From an uncultured Chloroflexia bacterium (GTDB lineage Bacteria > Chloroflexota > Limnocylindria > Limnocylindrales > CSP1-4), in contig CAVTHS010000006.1 of assembly GCA_963734535.1 (NCBI GenBank), positions 64,001 to 128,000 on the forward strand: a DNA stretch of 64,000 bases, in the 5' to 3' direction. This document shows, piece after piece, positions 9,028 through 55,524 of the stretch. Below the pieces are notes generated by a model. That model searched no databases, had not been told where the DNA came from, and was given only the letters and a program-made list of their open reading frames with translations. Numbering within the stretch: position 1 is the stretch's first letter; each line of letters starts with the position of its first letter. A program made the translations under genes and the position numbers.

Positions 9028-9135
9028 CGCAGCGAGACGCCTGGGGGCACGACGGCCCTGCAAGCGTGCTGCGGCCCGCCCCGGTTCGCGTGGATCGCCG
9101 GTCCACGTCCGCCGTCGCGACCCGATAATGCCGGT

Positions 9136-9756
9136 GTGGAGCCCGGACCTGCCCTCGCCGCCGTCGTCACGGCTGCCGCCGCGTACTTCATCGGCGGGAT
9201 CCCGTTCGGGATCGTGGTTGCGCGCCTGGTGGGTGGACGTGATCCGCGCAGCGTGGGCAGCGGCCGGACGGGCGGCGCCAACACGCTGCGGGCCATCGGG
9301 CCGCGCTGGGCCCTCGTGGCCGGGCTTCTCGATGCCGGGAAGGGGAGCGTCGCCGTTCTCGTCCCGCGGCTGCTCGGGTTCGGGCCGGCGCTCGAGGTGC
9401 TCGGGGCGCTCGTGGCGATCGTCGGCCACAGCCGCTCGCCGTACATCGGCTTCGGCGGCGGACGCGGCGTCTCGGTCGCCTGGGGAACCCTCGTCGTCAT
9501 CCAGCCCGTGGCCGCCGCCGCGATCGTCCCGGTCTTCGTCGCCGTCATCCTCGTCACGCGGATCTCGTCGCTGGGCTCGCTCATCGGATCGCTGTTCGGC
9601 GCAGTCCTCGTGATCGGGCTCGCCTGGCTGCAGGGCCTGCCACCGGTCTATGACGTGTATGCGGCCGGGTCCGTCGCGCTCATCTGGATCTTCCACCACG
9701 ACAACATCGCGCGGCTGCTCGCCGGCACCGAGCGCCGGATCGACCGGGGTTCCTGA
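9136..9756 (+). CDS. plsY: Glycerol-3-phosphate acyltransferase
   Basis: [23 protein letters not shown], GHxxSPY..FGGGRGV and HHDNIARL motifs. Confidence 0.92.
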
Positions 9757-9916
9757 CGCCGATTGTTGCCGCGGGACATCGGGCTTCCGGCCGATGCGCC
9801 TCGCGTGGAGCCCGGGCGGGTGCGGCGCTGCGGTAGACTCTCGGCGGGCCCTCTTCCTCGTTCCATCCGCACCCGCGACCGTGCCCGCGCCGCGCCTTCG
9901 GAGGTTCCCTGCAGCA

Positions 9917-10438
9917 ATGACGCCGGACGAGCTCCGCGCGAAGATTCGCGAGATCCCGGACTTCCCGAAGCCGGGCATCCTCTTCTACGACATCACCACG
10001 CTCCTCAAGGATCCCGTGGCCTACCGGGCGGCGATCGACGCGATGCTCGCGCCGTACAGGGGCATGTCGATCGACATCGTTGTCGGGATGGAGTCGCGCG
10101 GCTTCATCTTCTCCGCTCCGCTCGCATACCAGCTCGGGGCCGGCCTCGTGCCGGTGCGGAAGCTCGGCAAGCTGCCCGCGGAGACCATCAGCGTCGAGTA
10201 CGCGCTCGAGTACGGGTCCAACACGCTCGAGGTCCACCGCGACGCGATCGAGCCCGGCCAGAAGGTCCTGATCGTGGACGACCTGCTTGCCACGGGCGGC
10301 ACGGTCAACGGGACGGTCGAGCTGGTCCAGCGCCTGAAAGGGGAGATCGCCGGGCTCGCGTTCCTCGTGGAGCTCGGCTTCCTCAAGGGCCGCTCCCGGC
10401 TCGCCGGGCACCCGGTCTCCTCCGTCATCACCTACTGA
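9917..10438 (+). CDS. apt: Adenine phosphoribosyltransferase
   Basis: [26 protein letters not shown] and [10 protein letters not shown] motifs. Confidence 0.96.
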
Positions 10439-10463
10439 CGCGGGCCCGGGCAGGGACGGGTCG

Positions 10464-11900
10464 TTGACCGACGAGCGACGCCAGGCGTCCCAGCCCGCCG
10501 CGCCCGAAGCCACCAGTCCGGCGGAGGCCACCGGTCCGGCCGATCTCGACGAGGCGAAGCGGCTCGCTCGCCGGCGCTTCTTCCGATCCTTCGCCGCCGA
10601 CGCGATGAAGACCGCGGCCACCGTCGTGGGAGCGGCCGGCGCACTGCGCGAGAGCTCGGCCGGGATGGCAAGCGTGCTCCTTGGGACTGCCGACGCAGCG
10701 GCCGAGCCGGTCGGCCCGATCGTGACTGCCGCGCCGGGAGGGTCGGCCGGGACGTGGCGGAGCGCGTTCCGGTTGGAGCCGGAGCAGGTCGTGCTCCTGG
10801 ACCAGCGGCGCCTGCCCGACGAGCTGGTCGAGGTCGGCTGTCTGTCGGGGGCGGACGTCGCGCAGGCGATCCGCGAATCCGTCGTCCGCGGCGCTCCGCT
10901 GCTCGGCCAGCTGGCCGCGTGCGGCCTGGCCCTCACGGCGCAACGGTCGCTCCTCGCGTCCCCGTTCGCGCGGCGCGCCATCCTCGTCGGGACCGCGAAT
11001 GCACTGCGGAACGCCGCCCCGAACGCAGCGCCCGTCCGAAACGCGATGGATCGGATGCTGGCCCGGCTCGCGGAGGTCGGCAACCTGGACGCAGACGGTG
11101 CGACCATTGCCGCCGCGCTGCGCGACGAGGCCGATACGATCGTCGGAGAGGCGGTCTCGGCACACGCGCGGCTGGCCGCGCACGGCGCGGCACTCCTCGC
11201 CACCGATGCGCGAACGGCGGCCCCGGGGACGCTCCGCGTCCTGACGATCGGCAGCACCGGCGAGCTTGCCGGGGGGCAGATCGGCACGGCGCTCGCGATC
11301 GTGCGCGCGATCCGCGACGAAGGCCGGGAGGTGCAGGTCCTCGTCGCCGAGACCCGGCCGTGGCTGGCGGGCGCCCGGCTGGTCACCTGGGAGCTGGGGC
11401 AGGCCGGGATTGCCTGCGCGCTCGTCGCCGACGGGGCAGCGAGCGGGATGCTCGCGCGCGGCGAGGCGGACGCCGTCCTTGTCGGCGCGGAGTCGATCGC
11501 CGGCAACGGTGACGTCGCGTGCGACCCGGGCTGCTACGGGTTGGCGGTCGTCGCCGAGCGGCACGCCATCCCGTTCCTCGTCGCGGCGCCGCTCACGACC
11601 TGCGACCGCGAGGCGCTCGACGGGAGGACGCTTCGGGCGGAGCTGCGCCCCGCTTCGGAGCTGCTCTCGTTCGGCGGTCGGCAGATCGCGCCGGAGGGCA
11701 CGGCGGCCGTCAATCCATCCGTCGACATCGTCCCTGCGTCGCTCGTGTCGGCGATCGTGACCGAGGCCGGGGCCTTCCGGGCACCGTATGGCACGGTGCT
11801 GGACGATGCGGCCGCGGCGGCCGGGGTGCGTGCCGCCACGAACACGGACCGCGAGAGCGCCGCTGCCGGACCCGCGGACGCACCCGGGCAAGGGGCCTGA
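10464..11900 (+). CDS. MtnA/eIF2B-fold protein with degenerate active site and N-terminal extension
   Basis: [30 protein letters not shown] and [10 protein letters not shown] motifs; several canonical ligand residues replaced. Confidence 0.8.
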
Positions 11901-16339: not shown

Positions 16340-17161
16340 TCAGCGACGTCGAGTGCCGCCCGGGCGTGGGCGTCTCCGGTTGCGGCGCCGGACGTCGGAC
16401 GCGATCAGCATGCCGAGCAGGGCCAGGGCGATGACGACCGCGAACACCGCGCTCGAGACTCCGCCCTGGTCTCCAGCCGTCCCAACGGGGATCGCGGGGC
16501 CCGTGTGACCGGCCGAGGTCCCGGGACTCACCACGGGGTTCGGGCCGGCGCCCGACGGCGAACCTGCGGATCTTCGAGCGACGAGGGCAAAGTCGCCGAA
16601 CCGGGTGACGACGGCGGTGAACACGGGAGCAAACCCCGCGGCCTGGGTCTCGAGCGGCTCCCATCCGCCAGGGGTCAGCTGCTCGATCGTTACCAGCGGC
16701 TCGTCGCCCGGGCTGCGCATGACGACCGTCACCTGCTGAGCCGCCGGTGCCGTGAGGTCGACCCCGGCCTGGTTCGTGAGCGTGATGCGGTACACGTTGC
16801 CATCAATGCGGCCGTCGGTCGGGAGCGTGCCCGGTGCGACCGGGGTGATCGAGATCCTGATCGACGTGGTTCCCGCCGGCAGGTCGAGTGAGCCTGGCGT
16901 TGCGAAGACCTGGGCCTGGGGCGGAAGCTCCCCGGTGCCGAGGGCGACCAGCGGATTGGCCCCGTTGACGGGCTCCACGACGTTCGCGGCAGACCCTGGG
17001 CCCCCGGGCTGGCCCTGCAGCGGTGTCAGCCATCGGTAGGGCTCCTGCACCGCGACGCCGTCGTAGAGCGGTGGAGTGAGCACGGGTGCGACGTGCTGGG
17101 CGGCAAGGATCGCGATGATGCCGATCGCAAGCGAGGCGATTCCGATGCGGTGCTCGCGCAT
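16340..17161 (-). CDS. Exported hypothetical protein with C-terminal TM helix and Arg-rich tail
   Basis: N-terminal hydrophobic segment, PPLYDG...PYRW, C-terminal AVFAVVIALALLGMLIA-RRRNRRR; ATG overlaps the CPBP stop. Confidence 0.75.
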   Translation of the reverse strand: MREHRIGIASLAIGIIAILAAQHVAPVLTPPLYDGVAVQEPYRWLTPLQGQPGGPGSAANVVEPVNGANPLVALGTGELPPQAQVFATPGSLDLPAGTTSIRISITPVAPGTLPTDGRIDGNVYRITLTNQAGVDLTAPAAQQVTVVMRSPGDEPLVTIEQLTPGGWEPLETQAAGFAPVFTAVVTRFGDFALVARRSAGSPSGAGPNPVVSPGTSAGHTGPAIPVGTAGDQGGVSSAVFAVVIALALLGMLIASDVRRRNRRRPRPGGTRRR

Positions 17162-17769
17162 CACAGCCACCATGTCGCGATGTCGGCGATGGCGTGGGCG
17201 ATCGCCGGGGCCGCAACTCCGCGGCTGACGAGGCGCAGGCCCGCCAGCAGGAACCCGACGGCAATGTCCAGGGGGACGACGTGCCACCCGTAGAGCGGGA
17301 CGTGGAGCAGGGCGAATGCCGCGCTCGTCAGGGCGATCGCGACAGGGAGGCTCGCAGCGCCCGAAAGGGCATCGAACAGGGTGCCCCGGAGCACCGCCTC
17401 CTCGCCGACGGCGACCAGCAGCGTCACTGCCACCCAGAGGGCGAACGGCTCCGGGTGGCTGCCGAGGGGGAGGCCGGGCCCCGGCCGGGCGACGATCGGC
17501 AGGAGCACGAGGACGATTCCGCCGGCAAGCCCACCCGCAACGCCGACACGCCGGGGGCGGCCCAGGGACAGGCCTGTCGCGACCGCGAGCCCGATCAGCA
17601 ACGCGCCGAAGACGATCCCGGCCGTGAACGCGGGGCCGACGCCTGCCCCGTTGAGCGCGACGCGGGCGGCAACGGCGAGCGTCAACCCGCCCGAGATCGC
17701 CGCTGCGCGGGCGGCGCGCCGGAGTGAGCTCAGCGTCGCCGCACCCACCGCCGGCGCGGCCGGCGCCAT
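17161..17769 (-). CDS. CPBP (CAAX/Abi) intramembrane glutamic protease
   Basis: EEAVLRG (EExxxR), FALLH and AHAIAD motifs; multiple TM segments. Confidence 0.88.
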   Translation of the reverse strand: MAPAAPAVGAATLSSLRRAARAAAISGGLTLAVAARVALNGAGVGPAFTAGIVFGALLIGLAVATGLSLGRPRRVGVAGGLAGGIVLVLLPIVARPGPGLPLGSHPEPFALWVAVTLLVAVGEEAVLRGTLFDALSGAASLPVAIALTSAAFALLHVPLYGWHVVPLDIAVGFLLAGLRLVSRGVAAPAIAHAIADIATWWL

Positions 17770-19198
17770 CACCGCGGCAGCGGGACGAACTGGATCGTCC
17801 CCGTTGCATACGTCGGCGGCCAGACGAACGCGTACGTCCGGACTGCCTGCCATTGCCAGATGACCGCCGCAGCCCGATCGTTCTGGCCGAGTGTTGCGGG
17901 ATCGGACGAGAACCGGAGCCCTGCCCCGTTGGGCAGCGCGCCGGTCGGCAGGTCGACGGCGCGGGCGGCTGCGGCGATCGTCACCGCGTCCGGACCGCCC
18001 GCCAGTGCCGCGGCGGGCAGGACGTCGTGGAAGAGGGGCCACGCGGCCGAGAACCCGGAGATGCCCTCCTCGGTCGGGCCGGCCGAGGAGCCGAGGTCGG
18101 GGCCGACGAGGCCGTATTCCGGTGCTGCGCTCGGTTCGGGCGCGCCGCCGTACCCGGTGCCTCCACCGCCGTTGCCGCTGGGCGCCGTGCTCGCGGCGCC
18201 CGGGCGCGCGGCCCAGGCGGCCGCGAAGCGGTCGTAGACGGCGCGCGCGGCAGGATCGAGCGCGCCCGGCTGGAACCCGCCCGTGGGGCGATCCGACGCG
18301 AAGATCCCGATCGCATCCGCTCCGAGGTCGCCAGCGAAGTCCGGGTCGCACTCGGCCATCGTCGACCCGATGAGGGCCTTCACGCGAAGCCCCTGCCGAC
18401 AGCATCGCCCGGCGGAACGCGACGCCGTCGGGGATGTGCGATGCCAGGATGAGGACGTCCGGGCTGGCGGCCTTGAGCTCGTCCATCAGGCGCGACCAGG
18501 CCGGGTTGCCCGAGGTCGTACGAAAGGCGCGCCACGACCCGCCCGTGCGCGACATCGGCGGTCCGCTCGGCGGCGTCGGCCACGGACTGCGCGTAGTCGT
18601 CCTGCGCGTTGACGATGGCGACGCGAAGGTCGGGCGCGGCGAGGCCGAGGCGTGGGGCCAGCTCCGTCGCGGCGAACTGGGCCGAGTTCGTCCCGAGCTG
18701 CGTGCCACTCGCCCCAACTCGGAATACGAGCGGAAGACCGCGCCCCGTGAGGCGATCGGCGACGGCGCCCGCCTCCCAGTACACGAGGCCGGCCGCATCG
18801 GCGGCGGCGCTCGCGGCGATCGACAGGTCGGACGAATAGGCGCCGACGACGACGCTGACGCCGTCGGCCCGCAGATCGGCCATCACGTCCTGCGCATCCG
18901 CGCGACTCTCGAGATCGCGTACCACGAGCTCGATCGGACGCCCGCCGACGCCGCCGTCCGCGTTCACGAGGTTCGCCGCGATCTGGACGCCCGCGAGCTC
19001 CTGGCCGGCCAGTCCTGCGGCATTGCCCGCCAGCGGGAAGACCGCCCCGATCCGGATCGGCGGGGCGCCGGACGATCCGGCGGGCGTGGCAGCGGGCGCC
19101 CGGGCAGCTCCCGCAAGCAGGCTGACCGCGATGGCCGAGCCACTGGCAGCGAGCGCGATGCCGACGATGAGGCCTCGTCGAAGGGCGGATCGGGGCAT
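17769..19198 (-). CDS. LivJ-like ABC substrate-binding protein (at least 2 frameshifts near 18380-18510)
   Basis: PIRIGAVFPLAG, VNADGGVGGRPIELVVRD, VVVGAYSS and PDVLILASH motifs spread over three frames; no permease or ATPase genes nearby. Confidence 0.75.
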
Positions 19199-19199
19199 G

Positions 19200-19681
19200 T
19201 CACTTCACCGTGAAGAGGACTTCGTCGGACCAGACCCGCGGGTTGAACGGGGCGTGATCGGCGGCCACGAACTCGGCTTTGAGCACGTACGTCCCAGGGT
19301 GGACCGGCAGGTCCTGCTCGAGGCCGTAGTTCATCGAGACGAGGACGTTGTCGACGTACAGGTGGACGTGGCCCGCGGTCGGGTCGGATGCTCGTCGAGG
19401 TTGCAGCCACGATCTCGGCGCCCTGGAGCGAGACGATGATGTGCACCGTCGAGCCGTTGACGACCGCGCCCTGGGCCGGCGACGTGATCGCGATGACGGC
19501 CGGGGAGGCCGGCCGCGATCCGCTGGGCGTTGCGGCAACAGGGCTCGCGCCGGACGCGCCCGGCGGCGCAGATACGAGACCCGGATCCACCGATGCCGGT
19601 CCGCCGGCGGAGCAGGCCGCGAGGCTGACCGCGACCGCTACCGATCACCAGGAGGCGTCGAACGCGGCTGGTCGTGGACAT
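19200..19681 (-). CDS. His-motif lipoprotein (DUF4399/DUF6130-like; frameshifted)
   Basis: Lipobox SLAAC; ITSPAQG; GHVHLYVD and EFVAADHAPF motifs across frames. Confidence 0.65.
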
Positions 19682-19689
19682 CGGATACC

Positions 19690-21743
19690 TCATGGTGCGA
19701 TGGAGATGTCGAGCCGGGTCGCGAGCTCGTCGCCTCCCGGCGCCGGCGCCGAGACGGCAAGGCTGTAGCGTGCCTGCGGGCAGCTTCGCGTCGGCGACGA
19801 AGTGGCCGGGCTCGAGCTGGCTAGGCGCCAGGGGACGCAAGCGTGCCGTCCACCGGGCCGAGCGTCATCGTCACGCTCGTGCACGGGAAGCTCGCTCCCT
19901 GACGCGTCGAAGAACGTGGCGTGGATCTCGTTGGGACCCGCCGTCCCGGGATCCGCGTAGATCTCGACCGTCCTGCCGGCGGAGAGGTGGACCGTGTAGA
20001 TGGTCGGCAGACCCGGCACGGCGTTGACCTCGATCGTCGCGCCGGCGACGCCGAGCCGGAAGCTGTTCCCGGGGTGGTCAGCTCGAGCCGGACCTCGACC
20101 GATGCCGTCCCGTTTGCGACCACGGCGGTGATGCCCCACGTCCCGTCGAGGGACAGGTTGGTGCCATTCGCGGAGAAGACCCCGGGGCCGGTCGGCACGA
20201 GGTCGAGCCGGGAGGTCCCGACGTCCGACCGCGGTGGCGTGAAGCGGAGCGAGACGCCGGAGGCGGCGATCGGCGCGCCGCTGTCATAGTCGCTCACGGT
20301 GGCCGTGAACGTGTCCGCGCCGGCCGCTCCCCGCACGACCACCAGTCGCAGCCGGACCGACGTACCGAAGTCGTTTCCAAGCACGACCAGCGGCGCCGGG
20401 GTCGGGCCGGGACTCGGGCTCGCCGCAGCCGCAGGTCCGCCCGTCGAGGCCTCGCCCGCCGCCGCGACGGCCGCCGGTGGGGCAAGGTTGACGAGGCTGG
20501 CGGACAGGAGCACGACCGTGGCACCAACGAGCAATTCGATCGGTGCCGACCGGCGCAGCCCGCGCAGCGTGCGACCGGCGGCGGGCACGTTCCGGAAATG
20601 GTTGACTGCCCCGAGCGTTGCGAGCAGGCCGAGCAGGGCGGTCTTGGCGATGACGAGGCGACCGAAGTCGGTCGTGACAAGGCGATCGAACGTCGCCGAT
20701 CTCCGCGATCGCCCGGATCAGCCCCGTGACGGCGACGGTCGCGATCCCGGCCGTGGCGAGCCGGGCAAAGCGCCGGGCGGCGCGGGCCGTTCGCTCATCG
20801 GCGACGCCGCGAAGCGTCAGCAGCAGGCCGGCAAGCCCGCCGAGCCACATGCCCACGGCGAGCACGTGGAGTCCCTGGATCGCGATCCCGGTCGTGGCAC
20901 TCGCGCCGGCGGCCGCGTGGCTCAGGAGGACGTCGGCAAGCAGCGCGCTCGCGGCGCCGAGCGCCGTCACGGTGAGGGCAGCTCGATTGGCCGGGCGACG
21001 CGCTACGACGATGGCGCCAAGACCGGCCGACGAGCAGCGGCACGCTGCGTTCCGCAGATCGGCCGAGCCCAGCGACGTGCCGAGCACCTCGCCCAGCGCG
21101 GCGCCCGACTCGGCGACCTGGTCGGCGAGCGACGATGGTCGTGCCGATTGCCGCCACGAGCCAGGCCAGCGGCAGGAACCGACGGCTGACGGCGGCGTCA
21201 GGCGCCGCGACGAGGAGCCCGATTGCAGCCCCGCCAAGAAGCCCGATCAGGCCAAGGAACAGGTACCAGCGGCCGGTGATCGTCAGGGCCGACGGCGCGC
21301 TGGCTCCGGGAGTCGTCCCGACGGTCCCCGGCCCGGCATTCGACCCGGGGGCCGGGGGCGGCGGGGTCGTGCCGACCCCGAAGGCGAACGACCCGGTCGC
21401 CGAATGCCCGTCCACTGCAGAGACCGTCCGCCAGGCAACGGTGTAGACACCCGGGCCCACGTGCATCATGGGCGCCGGAGAGCGTCAGCGCGTCCCCGGG
21501 AACGACCGTGGCCGAGCCGCTGCTCACGACATTTCCGGCCCTGTCGAGCACCCGGATCGTCGAGAGCCTTGGGTCTGGCGTCTCCCCGAACGTGATCGTG
21601 ACGGCAGCGGGGGCCGTCGTGAGGGTCGCGCCGGCGCTCGGGTCCGATCTCTGAGGAAGCGAGTGGGCGGCAGCCGAGCCGGCCGCGAGAGCCACCAGGA
21701 ACAGCGCCGCAGCGAGCGCGCGGGTCGCCACGACGCTGCTCAT
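19690..21743 (-). CDS. CopC-CopD fusion with C-terminal YtkA/FixH-like domains (multiple frameshifts)
   Basis: Signal AAA-HS..SDP, YTVAWRTVSAVDGH..GSFAF (CopC); SHA, LHVLAVGMWLGGL and RFARLA (CopD); GTWGIT and GPNEIH in the C-terminal domains. Confidence 0.85.
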
Positions 21744-21828
21744 GGCACGGGCACGAGGACCTCCTACCCTCCGCTGGCCGGGACTGGCAGCGCGCCCCGA
21801 TCGGTCCGGCCGCGGACTGTCTGGTGCC

Positions 21829-22612
21829 TCAGCTCGTCATCGGCGACCGCTCGCCGACCGCCACGGAACGGTGTCGCCCGCGCAGGCTCGAGACCAGGGC
21901 CAGGAGCCCGATCATGATCCCGAGAACACCGGCGCCGAGGCCGACCAGGAGCGCCCGGCTCGCGTCATCCCGAGCCTGGTTTGCTGCCGCCTGCGCGGCC
22001 TGCAGGGATGCCTGGATCGTGCTGTTCGAGGTCTGTGTCTGCTGGACGGCGGCCTGGACCTGGCCGAGACCGGCCTGGGCGCCCTGGAGGCGCGTGTCGA
22101 GCCGATCCACCTTGGTGGCGAGATCGCCGATCGCCGGGACCTTCACCGGGAACTCCAGGGCCGCCGTCGTCTCCGCGGACGAGAACGTCGACGGCGACGA
22201 CGTCATCTGGAGGTCGACGGGGGCGCCGTGGATGGCGCCCGTGATGTGGAACGTGTAGTCGCCGGGGGAGGTGGGAACGAAGACGGCGTCGTACTCGCCG
22301 GGTGTGCCCCAGCCCTCCTCGACGTCGAATGCGGGCTCGAGCGAAAGCTCCTGGCTCAGCTGGTCGCCGAAGCCGACGACGACCGACAGGTCGCCGGCGG
22401 CGATGTCGGTGACGGGCTTCTCCGTGGTGGTCGCTGACGAAGACCTGGACGCCGTTCACCTCGCCGACGAACGTCGGCTCGTGCTGGAAGCCGATGGCGA
22501 ACGTGTAGTGGCCGGCGGACGCCATGCCGTGGGCAGATGCCCCCGCCACGGACGCAAGAGCCAGGAGCGCGGCCGCGAGGGCGGGCGCGAGGAAACGAAG
22601 GACGGAGCGCAT
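21829..22612 (-). CDS. Exported protein with mature N-terminal His, coiled coil and C-terminal TM anchor (frameshift near 22430)
   Basis: Signal peptide ...ASA-HGM; GFQHEPTF, GEYDAVFVPTSPGDYTFHITG; C-terminal LLVGLGAGVLGIMIGLLALV-RGRHR; AAGGAG RBS. Confidence 0.75.
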
Positions 22613-22651
22613 GATCGATCTCCTTGCCCTGCCGATGACGGCAGATCGAGG

Positions 22652-23521
22652 TCACCCTGGTACGGCGAATGCGCCACCGTGCCGGGTCTCCGACCGCGTG
22701 GAGCGGGTCGGAGTGGCGCGGAGGATCGGCGCGTGCGACCGTCGCGGGCGTCGGGTGGGCGCCGGCATCGGGCCGGTACCAGCGCAGACCGCTGCGGCCG
22801 GGTCGGGGCAGCGGTCGGTCAGGCAGCCACGGGCGGAGGGCGGCGCCCGCCCGGCAAGGCGCCGGGCGATCAGCCAGCCGTGGGCGACGGAGGCCGCGAC
22901 ATCGCCCCAGCGACGGGCGGCGCGGGTCGCGCCCGCCCGGACGAAGCGGGTCGCGCCGGCCCGGGCAGCGGCAAGGCGGCGCTCGAGGACGACACCCCGC
23001 CAGCGCAGCCAGGCCGCGGTGATGGCGAGCAGGAGCGAGACGCCGAAGAGGACCGGGAGCGCGAGCGGGTGGTGCGGCCAGACGAGGACGTCGAGGCCGT
23101 GGAACCCGTGGCCCGCGGCGAGGTGCTCGAGGTTCTCCTGGACGACGAACCCGGTCGTGATGACGAGGAACAGGCGGGGGGCGAGGCCGAGGAACTCGTC
23201 GAGGAAGGTCGGGCAGCTCCCCGGCTGCTCGCGCTCGCGCCGCCCCGGGCTCCGGCCGCCCCGCACCAGCGCGATCCGGGACCGCAGGCGGGCGAGGCCG
23301 ACCAGCGTCGCGACGATCGGGATGCCGGCCAGCAGGCTCGCGAGGACCGCGAAGGTGACCCAGTAGCCGTGCCCGGTGGCCGCGAGCGCCTGCCCCGAGA
23401 CGGGCCCGTACTCGGCGATGAAGACCGCGTCGTGGGCCACCACGAGGCCCACCAGGGCGAACGCCCAGAACCGGATCCGCCGGAACCGGACGAGCGTGCG
23501 GGACGGGGCCTCGGGCGCCAT
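22652..23521 (-). CDS. His-rich membrane leader protein with RAPP motif (true stop probably 22819-22821)
   Basis: VAHDAVF, GHGYW, QENLEHLAAGHGFHG, HHP and RRLAGRAPP; about 4 hydrophobic segments; TACAAT 6 nt before the ATG. Confidence 0.7.
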   Translation of the reverse strand: MAPEAPSRTLVRFRRIRFWAFALVGLVVAHDAVFIAEYGPVSGQALAATGHGYWVTFAVLASLLAGIPIVATLVGLARLRSRIALVRGGRSPGRREREQPGSCPTFLDEFLGLAPRLFLVITTGFVVQENLEHLAAGHGFHGLDVLVWPHHPLALPVLFGVSLLLAITAAWLRWRGVVLERRLAAARAGATRFVRAGATRAARRWGDVAASVAHGWLIARRLAGRAPPSARGCLTDRCPDPAAAVCAGTGPMPAPTRRPRRSHAPILRATPTRSTRSETRHGGAFAVPG

Positions 23522-23619
23522 CGGCGGATTGTATGGAGGCACATGGCGCCGGGGGAACCCCGAAGGCACGGGGTGTCGCCGCCCTGTTCGGGGACACAGG
23601 CGACCCGCATACTGGGCCG

Positions 23620-23820
23620 ATGATCGGACGTATCGCGGCCGCCGTGAGGAAGCATCGACCCGGTTACTGGCTGGTCGCGAGCCCGGTCCACGCGACCATT
23701 CCGCGGTTGGACCACTTCGGCCCGCACAACGCCGTCGAGTGGGTCATCTGGGTCGCTGCGATCGTCGTGGTCGGCTTCATCGCCTGGCGGGTCATCGATC
23801 GGCGGCTTCCGCCGGACTGA
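23620..23820 (+). CDS. Small membrane protein
   Basis: One TM segment (WVIWVAAIVVVGFIAW); CATACT 6 nt upstream of the ATG; start could be further downstream. Confidence 0.5.
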   Translation: MIGRIAAAVRKHRPGYWLVASPVHATIPRLDHFGPHNAVEWVIWVAAIVVVGFIAWRVIDRRLPPD

Positions 23821-23904
23821 GCGAACACCCGGCCGTCGCCCGCCGGGGCCCGGTCGCACGGTGCTACGCTGCCCGCGATCACCCAACGGGAGAGCCCTGC
23901 AACC

Positions 23905-36002: not shown

Positions 36003-36300
36003 CCTGCTCGTCTGCGACGCGGTGGTCGCGGAGGCGCTTTCGAGCGGAACGATGGACGAGCGGCGGACGATTGCGAGCCTGATCGACGCGGTCGAATACG
36101 TTTCCACCGCTCCCGACGCAGCCAGATGGGCCGGCGAGGCGCGCCGGCTGCGAGGAGCGGCCAGCCCGCGGACGCTCGGTGACGCGATCATCGCCGGCGT
36201 CGCGTGGTCCCTGGGGGCCGCGATCGTGACCCGCAACCCGGACGACTTCGTGCGGATGGGCGTGCCCGTCCTTACCTACGAGGCGGACGCACCGGCCTGA
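35905..36300 (+). CDS. vapC: PIN-domain toxin (VapC)
   Basis: LLDTTLLID, VVAE, GDAIIAG and VTRNPDDF acidic motifs. Confidence 0.85.
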   Translation: MPKLLDTTLLIDHSIGLPGAVAMLERLFAEADDLLVCDAVVAEALSSGTMDERRTIASLIDAVEYVSTAPDAARWAGEARRLRGAASPRTLGDAIIAGVAWSLGAAIVTRNPDDFVRMGVPVLTYEADAPA

Positions 36301-36439
36301 CCTCGCGCGGCGGCGCGCCGGTGCAAGCGTCAGCCGGCCCGCGTCGGGCACAATGGCCCGCACATCCCGGACGAAGCCCCGGGCGATCCGGCCCGACGCC
36401 GGCGCCCCGGCATCGGCGCCAAGCGGAGGAGCATCTGAC

Positions 36440-37642
36440 GTGACCGTCGGGACGGCGTTCCACCCGCGCACCGCGCCCCTCAATGCGCATCTCCAGTGGC
36501 GCGAGTGGTCCGGCTTCTTCGCCGCCAGCGCGTACCACGCCTCGCACGTCATCGAGTACAACGCGATCCGCGAGGCGGCCGCGCTCATCGACGTGAGCCC
36601 GCTCTTCAAGTACGAGCTGCGCGGCCCCGACGCGGTCCGCCTGGTGGACCGGCTGATCGTCCGCGACGCCGCGAAGCTCACGCCGGGCCGTGTCTTCTAC
36701 ACGCCGTGGTGCGACGAGCACGGCAAGGTGATCGACGACGGCACGATCCACCGGCTCGACGACGAGGATGGGGCGCAGGTCGTGCGCTGGACCGCCGCCG
36801 ACCCGCAGCTCCGCTGGCTTCGCATGAACGCGCAGGACCTGGACGTGGAGGTCCGGGACGTCAGCGAGTCCGTCGCGGCGGTCGCCCTGCAGGGGCCGCT
36901 CAGCCGGGAGGTCCTGCAGGCGGCGACCGGCACGTCCTTCGTCGACCTGCGCTTCTTCCGGCGCCGCCGGGCGACCCTTGCCGGCATCCCGGTCGACGTC
37001 TCGCGGACCGGCTACACGGGCGACCTGGGCTACGAGCTGTGGATCCCGGCAGATCGCGCGGTCGACGCCTGGGACGCGCTGGTCGCCGCGGGCGAGCCGT
37101 ATCGCATCCGTCCGGCCGGCATGCTCGCGCTCGACGTTGTGCGCCTCGAGGCAGGCCTGATCCTGATCGAGGCCGACTACACCAGCGCCGTCCACTCGCA
37201 CATCCCGAGCCAGAACTACTCGCCCTATGAGGTCGGGCTCGGCCGCCTGGTCGACCTTGACGCGGGAGACTTCATTGGCCGGCGCGCGCTCGTCGCGGAG
37301 ATGGCGGCCGGCGGGCCGCCGCGCCGGCTCGTGGGCCTCGACATCGACTGGCCGGAGATCGAGGCGCTCTACGCCGCACAGGGCCTGGCCCCGTACGCGC
37401 CTCCCTCCGTGAGCCGGGCGCCGGTCCCGGTCTTCGCTGCCGGCCGCCAGGTCGGGCGCGTCACCAGCACGGGCTGGAGCCCGCTCCTCAAGAAGATGCT
37501 GGGCCTCGCCTCCGTCGGGCTGGCCCACGCGCGAACCGGGACACGTCTCGCGGTCGAGTGGACGGTCGAGGCCCGCCGGGGCACCGTCTCCGCGACCGTC
37601 GTGGAGCTTCCGTTCTTCGACCCGCCCCGCAAGCGCGCCTGA
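36440..37642 (+). CDS. GcvT-like THF-dependent aminomethyltransferase/demethylase
   Basis: EYNAIREAAALIDVSPL, GKVIDDG, SRTGYTGDLGYE and RLEAG motifs; no gcvH or gcvP adjacent. Confidence 0.88.
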   Translation: MTVGTAFHPRTAPLNAHLQWREWSGFFAASAYHASHVIEYNAIREAAALIDVSPLFKYELRGPDAVRLVDRLIVRDAAKLTPGRVFYTPWCDEHGKVIDDGTIHRLDDEDGAQVVRWTAADPQLRWLRMNAQDLDVEVRDVSESVAAVALQGPLSREVLQAATGTSFVDLRFFRRRRATLAGIPVDVSRTGYTGDLGYELWIPADRAVDAWDALVAAGEPYRIRPAGMLALDVVRLEAGLILIEADYTSAVHSHIPSQNYSPYEVGLGRLVDLDAGDFIGRRALVAEMAAGGPPRRLVGLDIDWPEIEALYAAQGLAPYAPPSVSRAPVPVFAAGRQVGRVTSTGWSPLLKKMLGLASVGLAHARTGTRLAVEWTVEARRGTVSATVVELPFFDPPRKRA

Positions 37643-37698
37643 CGGCCGTGAACTCGGCGCGCACGGAGATCCGGACATCGAGCCAGGGAGGGACCCGC

Positions 37699-39300
37699 GT
37701 GGCGCAGCGCTACGACGCCGTGATCATCGGCGGCGGTCACAACGGCCTCACGACCGCCGCCTACCTCGCGAAGGCGGGCTGGAAGACGCTGGTCCTCGAG
37801 AAGCGCCGCATCCTGGGGGGCGCGACGACGAGCGACGAGATCGTCCCCGGGTACACCTTCAGCGTGCTCTCCTACGTCGTCAGCCTGCTTCGACCAGAGA
37901 TCATTCGCGACCTGGAGCTGGCGAAGCACGGCCTGGAGATCCTGCCGCTCGACGGCACCTTCACGCCCCTGCATGGCGACTACCTGTGGCGAACGGACGA
38001 CCATGCCCAGACCATCCGCGAGATCCGGCGCTGGTCGGCCACCGACGCCGACGCGTACGAGGAGTACGGCCAGCTGATGGCCGACATGGCGCGCTTCATC
38101 AAGCCGATCCTCGGGATGGTGCCGCCCGACCCGACGAGCATCGACCCGCGCGACTGGCTGGGCGTGCTGGGCCTGGGTCGCGACTTCGCGCGGCTCCCTG
38201 AACGGCAGCAGTCCGCCTTCATCGGGCTCATGACGATGAGCGCGGCGGATTTCCTGGACCAGTGGTTCGAGACCGAGCCGCTCAAGGCCACCATGTCCGC
38301 GTCGGGGATCATCGGGACCTTCCTGGGCGTCCGCTCGCCGGGCACCGCCTACGTGCTGCTCCACCACTACATGGGCGAGATCGACGGCGCGTTCCGCGCC
38401 TGGGGCCTTCACAAGGGTGGCACCGGCGCCATCAGCGCGGCGATCGCGGGCGCGGCCCGGGCGCACGGGGCGGAGATCCGCACCGAGGCGGGGGTCAGCC
38501 GCGTCATGCTCACGCCGTCCGGTGACCGCGCCACGGGCGTCGTCCTCGAGAGCGGCGAGGAGATCGCGGCCAACGTCGTGGTCTCCTCGGCGGATGTGCG
38601 GCGCACGTTCCTCCAGTTCCTCGAGCCCGGGATCCTGCCGGAGGACTTCGAGGCGCAGGTGCGCCGCTTCAAGTTCCGGGGCAGCTCCGGCAAGGTCAAC
38701 CTCGCCCTCGATGCGCTGCCGACCTTCACGACGAACCCGGGTGGCACGGAGTACCTCCGGGGCGCGGTGAGCATCAGCCCCTCGCTCGAGCACATGGAAC
38801 GTGCCTACGACGAGGCGAAGTACGGCCGCTTCAGCCGCCGGCCGTACGTCGACATCGTGTTTCCCAGCCTCGTGGACCCGTCCGTGGCGCCGCCGGGCCG
38901 GCACGTCATGAGCTGCTTCGTCCAGTACGCGCCCTACAACCTGGCCGAGGGGCCGGCGGACTGGGACAACCAGAAAGAGGCCTTCGGGGACGCCGTGATC
39001 GACCTGGTCAGCGAGTTCGCGCCGAACCTCCGGGACGTGATCGTGGAGCGGCACGTGGTCTCGCCGCTCGACATGGAGCGCGACTGGGGCCTCACCGAGG
39101 GCAACATCTTCCACGGTGAGCTCTCGCTGGAGCAGCTCTTCTTCAGCCGGCCCATCCCCGGCTGGGCGCGCTACCGGACGCCGATCCGCGACTACTGGAT
39201 GTGCGGCTCGTCGACGCACCCCGGCGGCGGGATCATGGGCGCGAACGGGCGGCTCGCCGCGCTCGAGCTGATCCGGGCACGCCGGACGAAGGTGGCCTGA
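37699..39300 (+). CDS. Phytoene-dehydrogenase-like FAD oxidoreductase (PYROXD2-like) A
   Basis: IGGGHNGL, EKRRILGG, SLVDPSVAPPGRH, GNIFHG and THPGGGIMG motifs. Confidence 0.88.
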   Translation: MAQRYDAVIIGGGHNGLTTAAYLAKAGWKTLVLEKRRILGGATTSDEIVPGYTFSVLSYVVSLLRPEIIRDLELAKHGLEILPLDGTFTPLHGDYLWRTDDHAQTIREIRRWSATDADAYEEYGQLMADMARFIKPILGMVPPDPTSIDPRDWLGVLGLGRDFARLPERQQSAFIGLMTMSAADFLDQWFETEPLKATMSASGIIGTFLGVRSPGTAYVLLHHYMGEIDGAFRAWGLHKGGTGAISAAIAGAARAHGAEIRTEAGVSRVMLTPSGDRATGVVLESGEEIAANVVVSSADVRRTFLQFLEPGILPEDFEAQVRRFKFRGSSGKVNLALDALPTFTTNPGGTEYLRGAVSISPSLEHMERAYDEAKYGRFSRRPYVDIVFPSLVDPSVAPPGRHVMSCFVQYAPYNLAEGPADWDNQKEAFGDAVIDLVSEFAPNLRDVIVERHVVSPLDMERDWGLTEGNIFHGELSLEQLFFSRPIPGWARYRTPIRDYWMCGSSTHPGGGIMGANGRLAALELIRARRTKVA

Positions 39301-52801: not shown

Positions 52802-53553
52802 TCCTCCAGCCGGCGAACCTCGACGCGATGGAGGTCGAGGCGCTCCAGACGGACCGCTACCTCGACGCGCTCCTGGCCGCCGTCGAGCGGCGAGCCCTCG
52901 ACGCGCCGGCCGACGCCGCCGTCGACCCGACCCTGCGCCGGGCGGCGCGGCGCCTGCGCGACGAGCTGGTCCGCACCCACCCGTCGTTTCGCTTCGAGGA
53001 GCGGCTCGCGCGCCGGCTCGCGGACGCTGCGGTGCGGATGCGCCTGGCGACCGCCGCCGGCGGGGAGGCCGAGGCGGCACTGATCCCGTTCCCGACCCCG
53101 CTGCTGGCCGACCCGACGCTCGCCGCCGAGCTGGCGAACCCCGAGCTGGCTGCGCTCCTGGGTTTGGGTGACGCTGCTGCCGAGTCGAGCACGGAGGCCC
53201 CGGTGGACTCCCGGGTCGCAGTGCCCGGTCGCCCGTCCGCCACTGCGCCGGCGGAGGGGCCTGCCGGGCTCGCCGCGCCGCTCCGCCCCGTCGTGACGCG
53301 GCCGCTGCTCGTCGGCGGTGCGCTGACCTCCGCCGCGCTCTCCCTTGCCGGCGCCGCCTTCGTGGCGTGGCGGCTGACGCGCGGCGCGCCGGCGGACCCG
53401 ATGGCACGCGCAGTGCGCGCGACGCGCGCAGCCCGCGAGGCCGCGGCGGTGACAACGAGCCGCTTGACGGCGGTCGCCACCTCGGCCACGACGCGCCCCG
53501 TGACGGCCCGGCGCGCCGGGAACGCCGGCCCCCGGCGCCGGGGGCCTGGCTGA
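52798..53553 (+). CDS. Hypothetical single-TM protein, probable anti-sigma factor
   Basis: Translationally coupled to the sigma; PSFRFEERL segment; TM helix LLVGGALTSAALSLAGAAFVAW. Confidence 0.5.
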   Translation: MILQPANLDAMEVEALQTDRYLDALLAAVERRALDAPADAAVDPTLRRAARRLRDELVRTHPSFRFEERLARRLADAAVRMRLATAAGGEAEAALIPFPTPLLADPTLAAELANPELAALLGLGDAAAESSTEAPVDSRVAVPGRPSATAPAEGPAGLAAPLRPVVTRPLLVGGALTSAALSLAGAAFVAWRLTRGAPADPMARAVRATRAAREAAAVTTSRLTAVATSATTRPVTARRAGNAGPRRRGPG

Positions 53554-54419
53554 TGCCGCTCACGCTTCCGTTCCGCCCGCGCCGCGAGACCTACCCGCCG
53601 GACATGTGGACCAAGTGCCCCAGCTGCTCGGAGATGCTCTTCAACAAGCACCTCGAGAAGAACCTGCGCGTCTGCGGCACGTGTGGCCATCATTTCCGGA
53701 TCTCCGCGAAGGCGCGCCTCGACCAGCTGCTGGACCCGGGGACGTTCCGCGAGCGCGACGAGGGGCTCGCCTCGCGCGATCCGCTCGGCTTCGTCGATTC
53801 GAAGCCCTACGCGGACCGCCTCGTCGCGGCCCAGCTGGCGACCGGGCGCCGCGACGCCGCGAGCTGGGGATTCGGCGCGATCGGCGGCAGGCGTGTCGCG
53901 ATCTGCGCGCTCGACTTCGGCTTCATGGGCGGCTCGATGGGCTCGGTCGTCGGCGAGAAGGTGACGCGCGCGGCGGAGGGCGCGTTCGTCGAGCGGGTGG
54001 CGCTCATCGTGGTCAGCGCCTCCGGCGGCGCCCGGATGCAGGAAGGGACGCTGGCCCTCATGCAGCTGGTCAAGACGATCGGCGCGCTGGAGCGGCTCCG
54101 CGCCGCCGGGCTGCCCTACATCTCCGTGCTCGCCGACCCCACCACCGGCGGCGTCTTCGCCTCGTTCGCCGCGCTCGGCGATGTCAACGTGGCCGAGCCG
54201 AAGGCCCTCATCGGCTTCGCCGGCGCCCGGGTCTCGGCCGGCACGATCGCGGAGGAGCTGCCGCCCGGCTTCCAGCGTTCCGAGTTCCTGTTCAGCCACG
54301 GGTTCGTGGACCGGATCGTCACCCGCGCGGACCTCCGCGACGAGCTCGCCCTGCTCCTGGCCCTGCTCGGACCCGCCGGCGCGACCGACGCCACGTCCGG
54401 GGGTGTGCGGCGTGGTTGA
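53553..54419 (+). CDS. accD: Acetyl-CoA carboxylase carboxyltransferase beta
   Basis: WTKCPSC...CGTC zinc ribbon; FMGGSMG, SGGARMQEG and PTTGGV motifs. Confidence 0.96.
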   Translation: MPLTLPFRPRRETYPPDMWTKCPSCSEMLFNKHLEKNLRVCGTCGHHFRISAKARLDQLLDPGTFRERDEGLASRDPLGFVDSKPYADRLVAAQLATGRRDAASWGFGAIGGRRVAICALDFGFMGGSMGSVVGEKVTRAAEGAFVERVALIVVSASGGARMQEGTLALMQLVKTIGALERLRAAGLPYISVLADPTTGGVFASFAALGDVNVAEPKALIGFAGARVSAGTIAEELPPGFQRSEFLFSHGFVDRIVTRADLRDELALLLALLGPAGATDATSGGVRRG

Positions 54420-55524
54420 CCGGCTGCTCGGGCGCCCGCGAGACCGCGAGACGGTGCCCGCTTCCCCGCCGCCCGGGATCGATCCCCGCGACGCCGTGTG
54501 GGCCCGTGTCCAGCTGGCCCGGAACCCGCGCCGGCCGCACACCCTGGAGCTGGTCGGCCACATCACCGATGCCTTCGTGGAGCTCCACGGCGACCGGCTC
54601 TACGGCGACGACGGGGCGATGGTGGGGGGCCCGGCCCGGATCGACGGCCGCCGGGTCATGATCGTCGGTCACCAGAAGGGCGCCGACACCGATGAGAACA
54701 TCCGGCGCAACTTCGGGATGAGCAAGCCCGAGGGCTTCCGCAAGGCGATCCGCCTGTTCGAGCTGGCGGAGCGGCTGGGCCTGCCCGTCGTCACGTTCGT
54801 CGACACCCCGGGCGCCTACCCGGGAGCCGAGGCGGAGGAGCGCGGGGTCGCCGATGCGATCGCCCGCTCGATCGGCGCGATGACGCGGCTCCGAGTCCCG
54901 ATCGTCACCCTCATCACGGGCGAGGGCGGGTCGGGCGGCGCGCTCGCGATCGCCGCCGGGGACGTGGTGGTGGCCCTCGAGAACGCCGTCTACGCGGTGA
55001 TCAGCCCGGAAGGGTGTGCCTCGATCCTCTGGCGAACGGCCGAGAAGGCGCCGGACGCCGCCCTCGCCATGCGGATGTCGGCCCAGGACCAGGCGGAGCT
55101 GGGCGTCGTCGACCGCGTCGTGCCCGAGCCCGGCGAGGGTGCGCACGTCGACGCGGCCGAGACCGGGAGGCGGCTGCGCGCGGTCATCCTCGAGGAGCTC
55201 GACAAGCTGGCGGTGCTCACGCCCGACGAGCTCGTCGCGAAGCGTGGCGGTCGCTATCGCGCATTCGGCGCGTTCGACGACCTCGGCATCAGCGAGCCGG
55301 GCGGCGGCGGGGCAGAGCGCCCGGGCCTCGCCGACCGCCTGCGCAGGGCGCTGGAGCCGGTGGGCAAGTCGGTGGGCGATGCCCTGGGCGGCCGGACCGG
55401 CCGCGAGGCCCGGGACGCGCGGAACACCCTCGACGGGCGTGAGCCTCGCGAGAGCCGCGACGCACGCGAGACCCGCGAGGGTCGCGATGGGCGTGACGAG
55501 CCGCCCGCGCGCGAGGAGGTGTGA
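54412..55524 (+). CDS. accA: Acetyl-CoA carboxylase carboxyltransferase alpha
   Basis: ELHGDR, NFGM..PEGFRKA, DTPGAYPG, GEGGSGGA and ISPEG motifs; charged C-terminal extension. Confidence 0.96.
   Translation: MVDRLLGRPRDRETVPASPPPGIDPRDAVWARVQLARNPRRPHTLELVGHITDAFVELHGDRLYGDDGAMVGGPARIDGRRVMIVGHQKGADTDENIRRNFGMSKPEGFRKAIRLFELAERLGLPVVTFVDTPGAYPGAEAEERGVADAIARSIGAMTRLRVPIVTLITGEGGSGGALAIAAGDVVVALENAVYAVISPEGCASILWRTAEKAPDAALAMRMSAQDQAELGVVDRVVPEPGEGAHVDAAETGRRLRAVILEELDKLAVLTPDELVAKRGGRYRAFGAFDDLGISEPGGGGAERPGLADRLRRALEPVGKSVGDALGGRTGREARDARNTLDGREPRESRDARETREGRDGRDEPPAREEV

Follow-up and report, generated by a model that had tools for sequence, protein, structure and literature searches.

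The window analysed here is a stretch of 64,000 nucleotides (nt) from an uncultured Chloroflexia bacterium (positions 64,001 to 128,000 of contig CAVTHS010000006.1, GenBank assembly GCA_963734535.1). Its minus strand carries an operon of copper genes, headed by a gene for a histidine-rich membrane protein that bears, close to its C-terminal end, the sequence Arg-Ala-Pro-Pro (RAPP), the ribosome arrest motif of ApdA and ApdP. A preliminary description had interpreted this gene as a metal-sensing arrest leader. Sequence comparison supports that interpretation: the gene probably encodes an arrest leader of the RAPP type, through which the downstream copper genes are controlled, and the arrest itself, with its dependence on copper or on membrane insertion, is what we infer. 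By direct reading of the minus strand the leader starts at the ATG at 23521 (the first possible start is the GTG at 23569). The strings VAHD, GHGYW, QENLEHLAAGHGFHG, HHP and RRLAG-RAPP are all present in its open reading frame (ORF), so that RAPP is confirmed where the preliminary description had placed it, in a His-rich first gene with several transmembrane (TM) segments. The homologue P0003 matches this ORF in a single frame over residues 1-229 with 87% identity (tblastn).

The window copy deviates from its relatives just after the motif. The RAPP codons are followed by TCC GCC and then by a run of C at 22833-22831, where one surplus base shifts the frame past RAPP-S-A and extends the ORF by 61 residues to a TGA at 22652-22654. 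Removal of one C yields RAPP followed by S-A-V-A-A and a TGA at 22821-22819, and a full leader of about 233 residues. Base 22830 is missing in all relatives' contigs that span the site (one contig in run X2 and one in X4); these contigs are about 93% identical to the window and therefore come from other strains. The sequencing runs that contain the stretch do so in small shares, and no RNA run is listed among them. The 20 homologues obtained by protein search (216-240 residues, 31-87% identity) stop 5-11 residues past RAPP, as in RAPPAALAA. Because of these two observations the window copy is taken to be the deviant one, as the preliminary description had supposed when it dropped one C to obtain RAPPSAVAA and a stop, and the 61-residue extension is flagged as an indel artefact or a lesion. 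Comparison with intact relatives (tblastn) reveals eight frame changes in the 6.4-kb operon (17161-23521, minus strand): after RAPP, near 22419, in the CopC-CopD gene near 21470, 21190, 20691 and 20090, and in the Peripla_BP_6 gene near 18504 and 18392. Relatives also show indels at 22420-22428, where the frame of the second gene changes. Overlapping same-strand or split ORFs occur elsewhere in the window, for example at 9028-11897, 36230-39297 and 53172-55521, which suggests that the assembly is indel-prone in general, in line with the indels noted earlier for this contig. Assembly indels are the simplest reading of the frame changes; decay of the operon is the alternative. The features of the locus are collected in Table 1.

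Table 1. Features of the leader and of the genes behind it, in window coordinates.
Feature	Position	Strand	Basis
Leader gene, intact part, ATG to RAPP, 228 codons	22838..23521	minus	direct reading and homologue alignment
R-A-P-P codons CGG GCG CCG CCC, proposed arrest site	22838..22849	minus	direct reading; R, P and P invariant in the family
Homopolymer run with one surplus base in the window copy	22830..22833		relatives' contigs
TGA stop of the leader in the relatives' frame	22819..22821	minus	direct reading, relatives' contigs
GC-rich hairpin with 9-bp stem GACCGCTGC/GCAGCGGTC, beginning 2 nt past the stop	22787..22816	minus	predicted fold
Structured spacer, 206 nt, with hairpin 22688-22713, CCTCC stretch 22720-22728 and a stretch with C in excess of G in its middle	22613..22818	minus	predicted fold, composition
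AAGGAG Shine-Dalgarno site (22620-22625) and ATG (22610-22612) of the next gene	22610..22625	minus	direct reading, predicted fold
Second gene: secreted, membrane-anchored, predicted N-terminal His after signal cleavage; frame change near 22419	21874..22612	minus	sequence, relatives' indels
CopC-CopD-YtkA fusion gene, four frame changes in the assembly	19699..21743	minus	Pfam, NCBIfam, tblastn
DUF4399 gene	19200-19538	minus	Pfam
Peripla_BP_6 gene, two frame changes	17778-19198	minus	Pfam, tblastn
Rce1-like protease gene	17161-17697	minus	Pfam

The leader belongs to a large family that lacks an annotation. It matches no NCBIfam model and no Pfam model (E up to 0.1 for the window ORF and up to 10 for the homologue P0003), the Pfam family DUF2946 included. 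A profile of 21 sequences searched against 1.84 billion representatives recovers 655 clusters at 50% identity with E up to 0.001, of which 430 lie within 1e-10 and 143 within 1e-30. Members that carry a name are 'hypothetical protein [Chloroflexota bacterium]' or come from an 'uncultured Chloroflexia' metagenome-assembled genome, and all are Chloroflexota, not Actinomycetota, the phylum that the G+C content might bring to mind. The family occurs in 19 of 401 genomes of a phylum sample, spread over four families, and in 91 of 301 genomes of an order sample, 90 of them among the 258 genomes of the window's family; in the window's genus it is found in 13/20 genomes, with G000 counted. A genome may hold up to four copies. 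A search of the plasmid collection gave no match.

Conservation of the motif carries the main argument. The alignment of 141 sequences (A3) comprises the window, P0002-P0021 and P0022-P0149, without eight truncated or over-long rows (P0026, 31, 87, 100, 125, 128, 138 and 140). Its mean column identity is 26%, and its sole invariant residues (141/141) are E129, R225, P227 and P228; position 226 is Ala in 137 sequences, Pro in two, Gly in one and Ser in one. Invariance of R225, P227 and P228 at this mean identity is far beyond chance. Of the best 150 representatives all but six carry RxPP within their last 25 residues (144; RAPP 140, RPPP 2, RGPP 1, RSPP 1), at 1-20 residues from the C-terminal end with a mode of 5, and these six all stop short of the end of the profile. 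In the genome loci the motif stands 1-13 residues before the stop in every ORF of three sets: 23/23 (RAPP 15, RSPP 3, RPPP 5), 8/8 and 40/40. The first of these counts includes two ORFs from the unpublished genomes G145 and G173 (21/21 without them), and L023 and L045 (G224, second place), which hmmsearch did not recover at E 1e-3, are excluded. The expectation that RAPP would be conserved a few codons before the stop is thus borne out by 144 of the best 150 representatives and 71/71 genomic ORFs.

The choice of residues is also informative. Mutagenesis of ApdA and ApdP is reported to show that no residue can replace the Arg and that, in the second position, Gly allows full arrest and Ser, Asp or Pro partial arrest (PMC12992588). 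The second-residue variants of the family stay within this arrest-permissive set, as is expected if selection acts on arrest and not on a docking motif. Like the C-terminal arrest peptides delimited by Fujiwara et al. (2025), the family combines R-[A/G]-P-P, with its irreplaceable Arg, with a length below 300 residues, a localisation signal and a recurrent class of same-strand downstream genes. In genome G000 the ratio of observed to expected RAPP is about 0.54, against 0.85 for AAPP, a rough depletion taken from a noisy ORF set; a genome-wide count of ORFs with C-terminal RAPP in G000 gave no credible second leader, with a filter on GC content at third codon positions (GC3) that admits wrong frames. 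One locus, L043 (G224:C7:1354000-1365000), holds three family members within 8 kb, two of them divergent neighbours; they carry the motif in the form RPPP, and downstream of them is a gene with DUF5134.

The last residue is Ala in 99/164 members (P0002-P0171), and the close relatives of the window copy end in LAA. Such an ending resembles the end of the SsrA degradation tag. By analogy, it may mark the finished leader for proteolysis; a nonpolar, degradation-prone tail has been noted for CruR, to which the Ala ends of the family are similar.

Hydropathy and charge predict four TM helices, at about residues 19-38, 54-77, 116-136 and 153-174. The Lys and Arg content of the successive segments (3.7 / 0.6 / 7.7 / 0.2 / 11.2) follows the positive-inside pattern, so both termini should lie in the cytoplasm and H30, H51 and the motif QENxE on the outer side. 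The earlier characterization of the leader as polytopic and without CxxC is in accord with these four hydrophobic segments and with the near absence of cysteine pairs: in the 141 aligned members no Cys is conserved (top column frequency 0.13), and CxxC or CxxxC occurs in 2/141. The polar residues that are near-invariant in these members are H30 (140), H51 (138), W54 (134), Q128 (129), E129 (141), N130 (134) and E132 (138), and H133 and M46 are partly conserved (56% and 57% of members). The conserved polar residues are confined to three places, the outer half of TM1, loop 1 and the outer end of TM3, and Q128-E129-N130-x-E132 is the hallmark of the family. This cluster looks like a metal site that faces outside the cytoplasm, and its residues may sense metal, a function that is suggested here with some reserve. 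Matches in a profile search of the PDB (designed helical bundles, Vpu) reflect composition only and were dismissed. The ESM Atlas has no entry for P0003, P0008 or P0016.

The distance between the membrane part and the motif is fixed. From the end of TM4 (W174) to R225 there are 43-52 residues in all 133 members that have both residues, although the sequence in between is poorly conserved, and from E129 to R225 there are 86-97 residues in A3. The ribosome tunnel holds some 30-40 residues. Given this length, the fixed linker implies that TM4 would have just entered the membrane when the ribosome stalls on RAPP. A comparable ruler is described for CruR, where the CXXC sensor and RAPP are 45 residues apart and the addition of five residues impairs regulation (PMC9426467).

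The genes behind the leader are the second main line of evidence. A Pfam domain of copper trafficking (CopC, CopD, CtaG, SCO1, PCuAC, YcnI or cupredoxin) is found in the first same-strand downstream ORFs of 56/68 loci, namely the window, 16/19, 8/8 and 31/40 loci of three sets; the linkage to copC- and ycnI-type genes that the preliminary description anticipated therefore extends to copC, copD, ycnI, SCO1 and PCuAC. In the 19-locus set, 16 loci have CopC, CopD, Caa3_CtaG, SCO1, PCuAC or cupredoxin, and the three exceptions have BNR and AhpC/TSA, redoxin and MauE/DoxX, and a protein with a predicted N-terminal His together with DUF5134. In the 8-locus set, five loci have SCO1 and/or PCuAC, one has DUF1775/YcnI followed by CopC, and two have the N-terminal-His protein followed by CopC-CopD. 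Nine loci of the 40-locus set show no copper domain; in two of them the contig breaks off, and another has a DsbA-like gene with VKOR. The function of the downstream genes lies in acquiring copper and assembling cuproenzymes, not in efflux, and Sco, PCuAC, YcnI, CopC and AhpC_TSA are also the set that is described as following homologues of cruR (PMC9426467). Neither a sec nor a yidC gene turned up behind the leader in any of the 68 loci covered.

The first downstream gene varies between CopC, the N-terminal-His protein, SCO1, YcnI, cupredoxin and thioredoxin-like proteins, and the four copies in genome G124 head CopC-CtaG (twice), SCO1-PCuAC and BNR-AhpC/TSA. Such variability is more easily explained by a portable regulatory cassette than by a subunit of a single machine. 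The upstream genes (ROK, hemerythrin, inositol monophosphatase, MerR-SBP) are mutually unrelated, and the leader is therefore the first conserved gene. In the window the divergent neighbour is metK, which starts at 23905. The order Peripla_BP_6 then Rce1-like gene recurs in L038, and the conserved block ends at about 17161. Two further CopC-domain genes of G000 (C7:83548-83835 and C8:381266-381556), one of which lies in a 646-residue open frame, have no ORF with RxPP ending just upstream. Cytochrome c (Cytochrome_CBB3) often stands behind the copper importer, as a separate gene in L059, L066, L073, L077 and L085 and as a C-terminal domain fused to CopC-CopD in L065 and L081; a cytochrome c feature also occurs in L029 and L058. 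This recurrence points to a link with the assembly of respiratory oxidases.

The second gene of the window represents a family of its own, with intact relatives at L046:3848-4672, L034:7219-7803, L038:2999-3667, L044:2982-3707 and L053:3650-4276. The signal peptide ends in an invariant Ala-His, so that the predicted mature protein begins with His; E47-P48, Y109, P-T..G.Y-T-F and D135 are invariant, H124 is near-invariant, and a membrane anchor is found at the C-terminus. No sequence match was obtained in Pfam, NCBIfam or the PDB. From these features the second gene looks like a new copper-binding protein with an N-terminal His ('histidine brace'-like) that precedes CopC-CopD. In hhalign comparisons with one YcnI and one CopC protein, nothing but the signal peptide aligned.

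The spacer between leader and second gene in the window is 206 nt long and contains hairpins, as had been described: the hairpin at 22688-22713 and CTGCCG-TCAT-CGGCAG are both part of its minimum-energy fold (z -2.03; 6/200 shuffles as good). The pairing of TCGATCT with AGATCGA that was proposed to overlap the ribosome-binding site (RBS) of the next gene is possible, but in the predicted fold the partner of the AAGGAG region is CGATCCTCC at 22720-22728, with or without a ribosome on RAPP. Across loci a GC-rich hairpin begins within about 10 nt of the leader stop in most cases. The 60 nt that follow the stop fold better than shuffles in 19/20 loci, with a mean z of -1.16 and values below -1.5 in 9/20; the window reaches -2.5. 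Automatic start picks give spacers of 48-60 nt in 11/20 loci, at least two of these picks being wrong. No Rfam family was detected in 22400-23700 at E up to 1, and no sigma-70-like promoter or U-tract terminator consensus in 22400-23900. CCT or CCA is used at the P-site Pro codon in 10/20 loci against a background of 24%, a weak trend among related loci.

The RAPP codons themselves may take part in the RNA structure. In five loci with CopC as the first downstream gene, RNAalifold predicts a helix of 10 pairs between the RAPP codons and the Shine-Dalgarno (SD) region of copC that encloses the hairpin after the stop; the fold of L028, whose spacer is 54 nt long, has a z of -3.05, with 0/200 shuffles as good. 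In a screen of 67 loci, 55 of which have a recognisable SD-led start, the presumed footprint of a stalled ribosome outdoes 90% of control blocks taken from its own gene in pairing with the SD region at 20/55 loci, where 5.5 are expected, and the median rank of the pairing is 0.154. Cognate footprint and SD pairs reach -17.9 kcal/mol against -15.6 kcal/mol for swapped pairs (permutation p 0.0002; 0/5000 reached). In L046 the pairing spans 169 nt, and the unpaired probability of the SD site rises from 0.22 to 0.42 with a modelled stalled ribosome. Automatic start picks are wrong for L027, L037 and WIN (accessibility set) and for L048, L049 and L052, and L040 has no usable start. A partial metagenome locus, L047, obtained in the same way as L046, was left out.

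Leaders of this kind have been described before. In a survey of 52,895 genomes for small RAPP/RGPP proteins (Fujiwara et al., 2025, EMBO J; PMC12992588), such proteins are reported to be enriched upstream of genes for YcnI-family proteins, PCu(A)C, TonB receptors, PepSY and DsbA/thioredoxin proteins, and TM segments are noted in the majority of those that precede YcnI genes. Motif-dependent arrest was observed in seven proteins from S. lividans, including SLIV_18480 with four TM segments, and the assays addressed arrest and not copper dependence; for RAPP proteins with four TM segments upstream of copper genes, of which SLIV_18480 is the example, arrest is described both in vitro and in vivo (PMC12992588). 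The present family resembles SLIV_18480, compared by description only, in its length below 300 residues, its four TM segments, its RAPP near the C-terminus and its position upstream of a same-strand metal-related gene, and the family member in L051 is directly upstream of a DUF1775/YcnI gene, as the SLIV_18480 class precedes YcnI. The predicted site of three His and one Met in SLIV_18480 (PMC12992588) recalls H30, H51, H133 (56%) and M46 (57%) of the family, a likeness that is suggestive only. However, SLIV_18480 is a Streptomyces protein in which Cys40 and Cys127 are noted (PMC12992588), whereas the present family comes from Chloroflexota, has no conserved Cys and bears the hallmark QENxE. 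Family members in GTDB representative genomes are very probably already among the surveyed lists. The terms 'stem-loop' and 'Shine-Dalgarno' do not occur in the main text of the survey, its sections on these proteins describe no RNA read-out and no ruler of length, and the source of the pulling force is posed there as an open question (PMC12992588).

Two copper leaders of the DUF2946 type offer further parallels. CruR (Bp2923, DUF2946) of Bordetella pertussis (Roy et al., mBio 2022; PMC9426467) likewise heads copper operons and carries RAPP three residues from its stop, at a fixed distance from the sensor; long structured spacers occur, and the same kinds of genes follow. It is described, however, as having a signal peptide or a single TM segment, a CXXC sensor, cytoplasmic copper sensing and a read-out through Rho (PMC9426467), in contrast to the four TM helices, the lack of CXXC and the outward His and Glu residues found here. 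CutF of Rhodobacter capsulatus (Ozturk et al., bioRxiv 10.1101/2025.02.05.636593) parallels the leader proposed here in a sensing part outside the cytoplasm and in a stall at C-terminal prolines, which melts a structure that hides the RBS of the copper gene behind it. It belongs to DUF2946, is secreted and has CxxxC and an EF-P-sensitive PPP, and in it copper induces the stall and switches on a detoxifying oxidase (10.1101/2025.02.05.636593), whereas the motif here is RAPP and the downstream genes are acquisition and assembly factors. A C-terminal stall motif at a fixed distance is thus shared with the DUF2946 leaders, but the Pfam match and CXXC/CxxxC are lacking. The monitors of protein export and insertion (ApdA, ApdP, ApcA, SecM and MifM) resemble the family in having a RAP-P arrest module near the C-terminus, a localisation signal upstream of it and, as proposed here, control of the next gene; they differ in standing upstream of secDF, secA or yidC, in being released by the machinery that they control and in lacking a copper link, and they are not homologous. 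The secDF genes and the cleavable signal peptide that characterise ApdA and ApdP are replaced here by loci free of downstream Sec genes and by four TM helices. Since the kind is already published (Fujiwara et al., 2025; CruR; CutF), the leader represents a new member family and not a new principle; it is large and so far unannotated, and its notable features are the fixed ruler from TM4 to RAPP and the putative role of the RAPP codons as an anti-Shine-Dalgarno strand.

Motif, position, spacing, topology by charge, synteny and RNA complementarity are observed, and stalling, sensing and the direction of the response are drawn from them in the following model. The ribosome would stall at the RAP-P step, as in other RAPP peptides, for which the placement at the P and A sites is described (PMC10951233, PMC12992588) and whose arrest is reported to resist EF-P (PMC12992588). 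At the stall TM4 would be just out of the ribosome, with the outer-face cluster of His and Glu (and Met in 57%) already in place. In members with short spacers the parked ribosome would cover the RAPP codons and free the SD site of the next gene, so that the copper genes are translated in the manner of SecM, MifM and CutF; in members with long spacers, including the window, protection from Rho as in CruR or a relay of alternative hairpins would be equally possible. The stall might be ended by folding or packing of the freshly inserted four-helix bundle, with metal at the outer-face site promoting or hindering this packing. It is possible, if doubtful, that metal-dependent packing of the bundle, about 49 residues from the peptidyl-transferase centre, pulls the RAPP stall free while the RAPP codons act as the anti-Shine-Dalgarno strand. 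Copper would end the stall and lower expression of the operon, as in CruR; the opposite sign, as in CutF, may apply. Repression by copper is the expected sign because the downstream genes acquire and deliver copper, although the choice between the two signs is close to a toss-up.

Several observations weigh against this model. The profile that collected the family contains RAPP, yet the motif makes up 4 of its 232 positions. The putative metal site could be no more than a group of conserved residues that share one depth in the membrane. In the window itself the RBS is not freed by a ribosome at RAPP in the predicted folds (unpaired probability 0.26 to 0.24), and the complementarity of RAPP codons and SD site is unremarkable there (rank 0.12); over 19 loci the mean unpaired probability of the SD site is 0.30 in the free transcript, 0.38 with a stalled ribosome and 0.33 with a ribosome at the stop. 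No common long-range helix was found by RNAalifold in six loci of the N-terminal-His type. Since Pro-Pro codons are rich in C, their pairing with a G-rich SD site is partly compositional, and the loci are related and hence not independent, so that the p-values overstate. No copper domain lies downstream in 12/68 loci, two of which are cut by contig ends. Finally, a conserved membrane protein of 233 residues could have a function of its own beyond regulation.

This last point leads to a different account, in which the protein is a working membrane component of copper trafficking (a partner, reductase or chaperone for CopD, YcnI-like proteins or SCO1) and the stall sets only the timing of folding or the stoichiometry. 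Four helices and near-invariant intramembrane polar residues in a 233-residue protein exceed what a minimal leader needs, and the family is present in 91/301 genomes of the order and has copper genes beside it. Yet the first partner changes from locus to locus, and four copies with different partners in G124 would be unusual in a dedicated subunit; past RAPP there is a short and variable tail with a terminal Ala, and neither the strict ruler from TM4 to RAPP nor the complementarity of RAPP codons and SD site is given a role, which together make this account unlikely. The protein motif might instead act without ribosome stalling here, RAPP being a C-terminal docking or degradation motif. The strength of RAPP arrest is reported to depend on the upstream sequence and on the ribosome species, and the majority of S. 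lividans candidates gave no arrest when translated in the E. coli PURE system (PMC12992588). However, the residues allowed in the family equal the arrest-permissive set, RAPP is described as generally avoided in proteomes (PMC12992588) and appears depleted here as well in the noisy ORF set given above, and all seven S. lividans proteins with C-terminal RAPP or RGPP that were tested arrested with Gram-positive ribosomes (PMC12992588). Such a function without stalling is accordingly very improbable.

Other accounts accept the arrest and differ in what is monitored or how it is read out. A leader that monitors the insertion capacity of Sec or YidC, as MifM, ApcA and CliM do, and to which metal is irrelevant, would suit a polytopic protein with an arrest site about 50 residues past its last helix, and insertion force is reported to release such arrests in known systems (PMC12992588); but the 68 loci, with copper genes in 56, have no sec or yidC downstream, and the conserved His and Glu residues face outward, so this can hardly be expected. 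In a read-out like that of CruR, the stalled ribosome would shield the transcript from Rho, and release of the stall would lead to termination in the spacer, mainly in the window (206 nt) and in L046 (169 nt). The excess of C over G in the window spacer (C/G 1.8-2.75 over nt 60-140) leaves room for it, cruR operons are described as typically having long structured spacers (PMC9426467), and the predicted SD accessibility of the window is unchanged by a stalled ribosome. Against this, the spacer of L046 has 69 C and 65 G without such a stretch, the 48-60-nt spacers (11/20 loci by automatic picks, at least two of them wrong) are short for Rho loading, and the window has no consensus terminator; a Rho read-out is thus rather improbable.

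The reading of the gene as a RAPP arrest leader of copper genes places it in a young field: control of copper genes by nascent-chain arrest was described for CruR in 2022 and for CutF in 2025, and the RAPP survey dates from December 2025. For the question of how stalls end where neither Sec nor YidC is monitored, the family offers a natural data set of 655 clusters, with an invariant arrest module, a linker of fixed length and a few conserved outward-facing His and Glu residues as experimental handles, and with a putative RNA read-out through pairing of the RAPP codons with the RBS behind them. If the proposed release by packing of the bundle is true, the force that ends the arrest would come from a source other than Sec or YidC, and if the RAPP codons act as the anti-Shine-Dalgarno strand, one stretch of mRNA would serve as both brake and switch. 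As to annotation, a widespread 'hypothetical protein' of the Chloroflexota can now be regarded as a probable arrest leader of copper-acquisition operons.

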